From: Escherichia coli
GTDB lineage: Bacteria > Pseudomonadota > Gammaproteobacteria > Enterobacterales > Enterobacteriaceae
Reading direction: 5' to 3' (one strand)
Assembly: GCF_009931435.1 (NCBI RefSeq)
Contig: NZ_CP043414.1
DNA: 64,000 nt
The notes beneath the pieces are model-generated. The model saw nothing but the letters and a program-made list of their open reading frames with translations, made no database searches and was not told where the DNA came from. The translations under genes and the position numbers were made by a program. Below are positions 2,856 to 3,285 of the stretch, one piece after another. How positions within the stretch are numbered: the first letter of the stretch is position 1; every line of letters starts with the position of its first letter.

Positions 2856-3285
2856 ACGTAAACTCTTTCCGGTTGTTGTCGATAGCTCTATATCCCTCAA
2901 CCGGAAAATAATAATACCAAAATGCTTAGCGCGGCTAATAATCGCCTAATCCAAACGCCTCATTCATGTTCTGGAACAGTCGCTCAAATGTACTCAGGAT
3001 ACGCGGTTCGCTGATTTCCAGGAAATTGTCGTAATTCAGCGACCTGTCCCGTGTATCACGGGCCTGCTAATCCATCAAGGAATGCATTGCGGAGTGAAGT
3101 ATCGAGTCAAGCCAGATTTCGCGATCAGGATTCTGTGTGATGATTACATTGCCAGGCCCGGGGCTGTTTAGTCATCGCCGCACAGTGCTGAGATTTCAAC
3201 CTGTTGCAGGGAAAATGAGTAGATTTAGGGCAAGTGTGCTGCCAAACCCAACTTTTACGCGGGGAAGGTAGATTTCGTTGGAAGG

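Follow-up and report, generated by a model that had tools for sequence, protein, structure and literature searches.

Introduction

What lies between cscB and the repeated 3' end of argW in Escherichia coli, and does any of it code for something? In the 64,000-nucleotide stretch of E. coli DNA analysed here (contig NZ_CP043414.1; hereafter the window), about 430 bp separate the last gene of a csc cluster from a direct repeat of the end of a tRNA gene. At the argW hotspot, csc is reported to replace dsdC and part of dsdX (Jahreis et al. 2002; Moritz & Welch 2006, cited via PMC11251922, PMC3032704 and PMC4366372); the articles consulted give no description of the cscB-argW spacer. A preliminary description of the window, made from the letters alone, took the segment for a decayed gene, visible as a long open frame on the plus strand, and for a junction left by the events that placed csc beside an argW island. 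Here we assign each piece of the spacer to a source, examine its conservation, and reconstruct the argW site as it exists without an insertion.

Results

Limits of the spacer and its plus-strand open frame

On the plus strand, cscK occupies 622..1536 and cscB 1608..2855. The stop of cscB falls at 2855, so that the first base after the gene is 2856, and the first base of the att repeat is 3285; the limits 2856-3285 given in the preliminary description are thus correct. Inside 2856-3284, the program-generated list of open reading frames holds mechanical ORFs of 30-44 aa only, and the earlier observation that this spacer contains no convincing ORF stands.

The claim of a plus-strand frame open for about 85 codons does not hold. 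The longest stop-free stretch on that strand is 73 codons (2950-3168), its sole ATG leaves 29 codons and, when the 430 bases are shuffled with dinucleotides preserved, 36% of the shuffles contain a plus-strand run as long or longer. No Pfam match was obtained with the plus-frame peptides. Given a length expected by chance and no Pfam match, this open frame is not evidence of anything. It also shares its codon boundaries with the minus-strand DUF4942 frame described below, to which it lies antisense, and we rejected it as a gene signal, reading it as either chance or the antisense shadow of that frame.

Scans for RNA elements were likewise negative. Rfam 15, searched over 2600-3800 at E ≤ 1, returned only RalA, at 20.1 bits against a cut-off of 170 and mostly inside cscB; a promoter and terminator scan found no promoter-like or canonical terminator-like site within 2856-3285. 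Neither a known regulatory RNA nor an intact small gene, either of which would have spoken against the preliminary reading, was found in this window.

The csc cassette ends at position 2923

In a scan for CscB relatives that used one genome per species, two csc loci of Citrobacter amalonaticus were recovered that match the window at 80-83% nucleotide identity up to position 2923, where the homology ends. The first part of the spacer, 2856..2923 on the plus strand, is by this homology the untranslated 3' tail of a csc cassette of about 5 kb. Measured with the O157 locus, which reaches cscR, the block shared by E. coli and Citrobacter spans ~5.0 kb, starting ~40 bp before cscR and ending at the position that corresponds to 2923. 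It is collinear between two different chromosomal contexts: the neighbours of csc in C. amalonaticus are a methyl-accepting chemotaxis protein (MCP) gene (Pfam MCPsignal and HAMP), fbp and mpl, not argW.

The ATG of the Citrobacter MCP gene aligns with window position ~2914, where E. coli reads ATACCAAAAT and Citrobacter ATGCCAAAAT (ATA and ATG, respectively, followed by CCAAAAT). Because of this alignment and the matching bases, the last ~10 nt of the tail look like a stub of the MCP start, a resemblance which hints that csc moved out of a Citrobacter-like context and into E. coli, and not in the opposite direction. The tail is followed by a junction zone at 2924..2943, not assigned to a strand, in which the Citrobacter homology is over and the DUF4942 homology has not yet begun; only 2 of its 20 alignment columns are invariant.

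A different breakpoint is seen in Escherichia sp. MOD1-EC7003, in which homology ends in the loop of the hairpin that follows cscB (locus ~6281, equivalent to window 2888) and gives way to unrelated sequence; the contig itself stops ~60 bp past this point.

A conserved hairpin after cscB

Within the tail, RNA folding and arm invariance identify a conserved plus-strand hairpin at 2866..2907, with 10-bp arms (TTTCCGGTTG and CAACCGGAAA) and a 22-nt loop. Its fold energy is -16.6 kcal/mol in the window (z = -3.0), and -18.1 and -19.8 kcal/mol in the versions from Citrobacter and from a divergent Escherichia lineage (z = -3.95 and -4.6). None of the 20 arm positions varies among five sequences from E. 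coli, Citrobacter and the divergent Escherichia lineage; invariant positions number 14 of 22 in the loop, 12 of 26 in the last cscB codons and 6 of 16 downstream. Covariation was not detected in these five sequences, in which the arms never vary, and the signal is one of conservation only. The arms are more conserved than the adjacent coding sequence, and the first 70 bp of the spacer are therefore probably not functionless.

The terminator scan passed over this hairpin, which has no U-tract of the kind that marks an intrinsic terminator: the bases after it are AAAAUAAUAAUA on the plus and AGAGUUUACG on the minus strand. We suggest that the hairpin is probably a 3'-end element of the cscKB mRNA. 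In Rosenbergiella, whose CscB is 62% identical, an unrelated hairpin stands directly after cscB, also without a U-tract.

A DUF4942 pseudogene fragment on the minus strand

The largest part of the spacer is the remnant of a gene that reads from right to left. With its one stop masked, the minus-strand translation from 3171 to 2944 matches Pfam PF13708 (DUF4942) with E = 7.2e-8 and 32.8 bits, above the gathering cut-off of 25; the match covers profile positions 5-62 of 190, so that neither a complete domain nor an intact ORF of ~281 aa is present. A tblastn search with an intact 281-aa DUF4942 protein aligns residues 76-151 to the same region at 57% identity (E = 5e-23), making 2944..3171 the core of the pseudogene (codons 76-151 of a 281-aa protein). 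A more decayed 5' piece of the same pseudogene, also on the minus strand, lies at 3183..3240, where a nucleotide match to the intact gene (76% identity over 58 bp) covers gene nt ~97-153, or codons ~33-51. Together, the pieces represent codons ~33-151 of 281, with neither the start nor the 3' half of the gene. Local alignment places a ~55-bp deletion between the 5' piece and the core in all haplotypes, an extra 6-bp deletion is specific to the haplotype of the window, and the frame is interrupted by an in-frame TAG at 3067-3069. The preliminary description was therefore right that a decayed gene is present, and mistaken about its strand, which is minus and not plus.

The remaining 44 bp, 3241..3284, adjoin the tRNA end and att repeat and are collinear in all csc+ haplotypes. 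No significant similarity to other sequences was found for this piece, which is too short to yield a significant match; possibly, it is what remains of a still more 5' portion of the DUF4942 pseudogene.

Intact 281-aa DUF4942 genes are the last genes of CP4-type islands, where they follow cbeA, cbtA, DUF5983 and DUF957. Among 5,426 complete E. coli genomes, orthologous copies of the remnant are 88-100% identical to it and intact paralogues at most 78%, with a clean gap between the two groups, and none of these genomes carries a close intact parent; we thus infer a source island rather than observe one. An NCBIfam scan of the remnant gave no match, and a word-indexed protein search with it yielded nothing but short fragments of this locus. 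Outside such fragments, the best matches in an exhaustive protein search were 50-53% identical and 149-261 aa long, all shorter than the intact 281 aa.

ORFs called at this site in other strains vary from 44 to 131 aa, and in many genomes RefSeq labels an ORF of 50-60 aa here as "DUF4942 domain-containing protein" or "hypothetical protein". Judged by its sequence, the remnant is a pseudogene fragment and not a functional member of the DUF4942 family.

Divergence between csc haplotypes

Constraint on the spacer was assessed by comparing the csc haplotype of the window with the common one. The former is found at 99% identity or more in only 38 of the 5,426 genomes and is ~4% diverged from the latter, and this rarity makes the comparison informative. 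For cscK and cscB, pS is 0.11-0.15 and pN is 0.01, while the segment shows a p-distance of 0.085 plus an indel. The divergence of the segment is thus ~8 times that of non-synonymous sites and near that of synonymous ones. In the DUF4942 frame, dN/dS is 1.1-1.2, with no sign of purifying selection, and differences at first, second and third codon positions number 7, 7 and 3, as against 11, 2 and 38 in cscB. Outside the hairpin, the sequence evolves like unconstrained DNA, drifting nearly neutrally.

Strain SCPM-O-B-8794, from the divergent Escherichia lineage, keeps the order cscB, hairpin, remnant, att and torI; its csc genes are 90% identical to those of the window, and its remnant is shorter and 72% identical.

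Between the two E. coli haplotypes, dS of the csc genes is 0.12-0.16 and dN 0.01, large values for a comparison within the species. This divergence points to a polymorphism of long standing or to acquisition from a divergent lineage of Escherichia. On its yfdC-mlaA side, too, the window is only 96.6% identical to K-12.

The spacer is the native flank of argW

The segment is present in 2,636 of the 5,426 complete genomes, in single copy and always on the chromosome. With 2,645 genomes carrying the 3' end of cscB, the two counts are nearly equal, which indicates that the segment belongs to the csc haplotype. In three csc+ strains (NT1F25, ATCC 8739 and O157), the gene order is dsdA, dsdX', cscR, cscA, cscK, cscB, segment. 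Among csc+ strains, homology halts exactly at the argW 3'-end repeat, with different elements beyond it: in NT1F25 and ATCC 8739, a CP4-type island (>49 kb in the latter) with a frameshifted yeeU at its end; in O157, a P22-like element with a recombinase; and in the window, a KplE1/CPS-53-like element, represented by its torI end.

A synthetic empty site, made by joining window positions 3006-3305 directly to 6984-7283, was matched in one uninterrupted piece in 1,415 of the 5,426 genomes, in which the two flanks are contiguous. The match is 100% in WL297, whose annotation reads cscB, 435 bp, tRNA-Arg, yfdC. It follows that the segment is the native spacer between cscB and argW, that 3306-6962 of the window is an islet inserted in argW, and that 3285-3305 is the displaced tRNA end (attR). 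The junction proposed in the preliminary description does exist, at ~2924-2943, where it forms the border between the csc cassette and resident DNA; it is not a scar specific to the argW island of the window, since the same spacer is uninterrupted in those 1,415 genomes.

In K-12, which lacks csc, attR (pawZ) is followed by 95 bp and then dsdC. This attR-dsdC flank has no similarity to the segment, and a dsdC remnant was ruled out as its identity for that reason. A partial match in O157:H7 strain AC-5 was considered as a possible remnant in a csc-negative context and proved to be only a strain-specific deletion (locus 4607-5104), which begins within cscK and extends as far as the counterpart of window ~3181, so that cscB and the greater part of the spacer are gone and the last ~104 bp of the spacer are kept with the att repeat.

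In four GenBank "phage" records, an integrase and lambdoid genes come after a stretch that comprises cscA, cscK, cscB, the spacer and tRNA-Arg. One is ON470622.1 (Escherichia phage vB_EcoS-716R3, partial genome, 1-5764), in which small plus-strand ORFs of the spacer are annotated "hypothetical protein" and "A-kinase anchor protein 5"; these annotations are spurious. The four records appear to be prophage regions deposited with their host flank.

The argW islet of the window

ARAGORN identifies a single tRNA gene in the window, argW, tRNA-Arg(CCT), on the minus strand at 6969..7043. Two exact copies of a 21-nt sequence, GATAAATGGTGTCCCCTGCAG, form a direct repeat at 3285-3305 and 6963-6983; 15 of its nucleotides are the 3' end of argW. 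The inserted DNA is thus bounded by a direct repeat identical to the tRNA 3' end, and the copy at 3285..3305 (15 nt of tRNA plus 6 nt) is attR. Between the copies lies a 3.7-kb islet (3306..6962) with matches to CPS-53/KplE1 of K-12 at both ends: 3290-3701 is 94.7% identical to the torI end of that element, and the sequence from 6336 onwards is 96.6% identical to the 5' part of intS, argW and yfdC. A remnant of the 5' end of the integrase gene intS adjoins argW, and the gene for the directionality factor, torI, lies at the far end (3379..3579, minus strand). The islet is a gutted KplE1/CPS-53-like element, in which the torI end and ~470 bp of the 5' end of intS surround cargo that is not of phage origin. 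Because its integrase is truncated, it is probably immobile.

The cargo comprises a PACE-family transporter gene of the chlorhexidine efflux type (PF05232; 4386..4844, minus strand) and a divergent gene for a LysR regulator (4948..5832, plus strand), and two small ORFs in the islet (3704..4048 and 4076..4243) have no Pfam match. At least 80% of the islet is present in only 5 of the 5,426 complete genomes.

A second stretch of argW is also found in the islet. A 16-nt exact copy of the argW T-arm, GGAATCGAACCTGCAA (tRNA nt ~46-61), occurs at 3599-3614 and 6983-6998, the former just upstream of torI, and the att core (tRNA nt 61-75) lies just downstream of torI. From these matches, torI looks as if it were nested inside a split copy of the 3' half of argW. 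K-12 CPS-53 has the same arrangement (locus ~12280-12300), which is thus a property of KplE1 and not of this strain.

Discussion

The spacer at 2856-3284 is, we are highly confident, an ordinary non-coding interval between cscB and argW, composed of the tail of the csc cassette, a dead DUF4942 fragment and a short flank. We observed directly what each piece is, that the empty site exists and that constraint is lacking, and the spacer does not conceal a gene or a regulatory RNA. Three readings that would give it a coding or regulatory role can be weighed against these data. That the long plus-strand frame is itself the decayed gene, as the preliminary description had it, has a vanishingly small probability: the 73-codon stretch is real, but more than a third of shuffles contain its equal, its translation matches no Pfam family, and it runs antisense and in register to a minus-strand frame whose homology is supported at E = 5e-23. 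The proposal that the minus strand encodes a functional miniature DUF4942 protein is highly improbable, even though PGAP annotates a protein of 50-60 aa there in many genomes and the fragment exceeds the Pfam gathering score. For the window, the TAG at 3067-3069 already goes most of the way to refuting it. No ORF of even 30 aa spans the DUF4942 core on the minus strand of this allele, ORF length is unstable between strains, less than a third of the profile is covered, and a dN/dS slightly above one, with neither an excess of third-position differences nor a promoter-like site, is not what would be expected of such a protein. A regulatory RNA, or a terminator other than the hairpin after cscB, is also improbable, if less so than a small protein. 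The strong conservation of 2866-2907 speaks for some RNA element and, in empty-site strains, argW is transcribed toward the spacer, so that a 3'-end signal of the tRNA precursor could sit in 3180-3284. Against this, Rfam offers no family beyond the sub-threshold RalA match, neither a promoter nor a terminator is apparent between 2856 and 3285, the hairpin has no U-tract on either strand, and divergence elsewhere is near the synonymous rate, with the part nearest the tRNA being the least conserved (89%).

How the spacer came about is less certain. The ancestor would have carried a CP4-type island at argW that ended in a DUF4942 gene, followed by attR and dsdC. A csc cassette would have taken the place of everything between ~codon 151 of DUF4942 and a point inside dsdX, the old attR and dsdC included. 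Before or after this replacement, the island from the tRNA end to ~codon 20-33 of DUF4942 would have been lost, possibly by aberrant excision, which would leave argW abutting the remnant, as in the empty site. Later integrations at argW, including that of the islet in the window, would have duplicated the tRNA end at 3285-3305. The hairpin aside, the spacer has no sequence-specific function, and its only role is that of a constant outer flank to the argW integration hotspot. On this view the spacer may preserve a trace of the way in which csc was fixed in Escherichia. We offer this account only tentatively as a whole, that is, entry of a Citrobacter-like cassette into the DUF4942 gene of an argW island with replacement of dsdC-dsdX, excision of the island with the tRNA core as endpoint, which left csc stranded as a stable operon of the chromosome next to a hotspot where integration still goes on, and a hairpin that functions across genera as a 3'-end element of cscKB; its joint probability is appreciable but below even. 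It is unlikely that the DUF4942 fragment instead arrived with csc on the donor DNA and is no relic of an island in the recipient. The almost perfect linkage of remnant and csc (2,636 versus 2,645 genomes) would fit such a joint arrival, as would the fact that no csc-negative genome has the remnant beside dsdC. In C. amalonaticus, however, what lies beyond the end of the cassette, at the position corresponding to 2923, is the MCP gene rather than DUF4942, and DUF4942 genes are typical of the distal ends of tRNA-associated islands in E. coli, reading away from the tRNA gene as the remnant does from argW.

The feature is already known in kind and, through the RefSeq DUF4942 label, largely in instance; what is added here is its status as a pseudogene, the exact border of the cassette and the demonstration of the empty site. 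Its biological weight is small, and one candidate for a hidden gene or RNA has been removed. The anatomy of the locus can now be read as the right border of csc (2923), the junction (2924-2943), the pseudogene and attR, and a protein label persists in RefSeq in many genomes although the fragment behaves as a pseudogene. Being present in about half of E. coli, the spacer is a convenient anchor for typing argW islands, and in csc transplants, for example from E. coli W, the conserved hairpin may be worth keeping.

Comparison with known systems places the locus among familiar ones. In published accounts, the chromosomal cscRAKB loci at the argW-dsdA hotspot of E. coli EC3132, W and O157:H7 share its position and gene order, and the window differs from them in carrying a rare haplotype, ~4% removed from the common one. 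The remnant resembles the intact DUF4942 genes of CP4-type islands (WP_001280435.1 and WP_001280481.1) in sequence (57% at the amino acid and 74-78% at the nucleotide level over codons 76-151), in reading away from the tRNA gene and in lying at the outer edge of a tRNA-associated island site; it differs from them in that only ~40% of the gene is left, with deletions, a stop and no selective constraint.

The attR of the window is the counterpart of pawZ, the attR of CPS-53 (KplE1) in K-12: in both, the displaced 3' end of argW is joined to the torI-bearing end of the prophage (94.7% identity). The flanks beyond are dissimilar, K-12 having 95 bp and then dsdC where the window has the DUF4942 remnant and csc. 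The exact repeat also differs, being 21 nt in the window and 15 nt in the annotated pawZ of K-12, because the six bases past the tRNA end (GATAAA; 3285-3290 and 6963-6968) are the same on both sides in the window. GATAAA is already present in WL297, which has an empty site and the spacer form of the window, and the common haplotype has GGTATC; the shared bases could reflect conversion toward the KplE1 arm, or coincidence.
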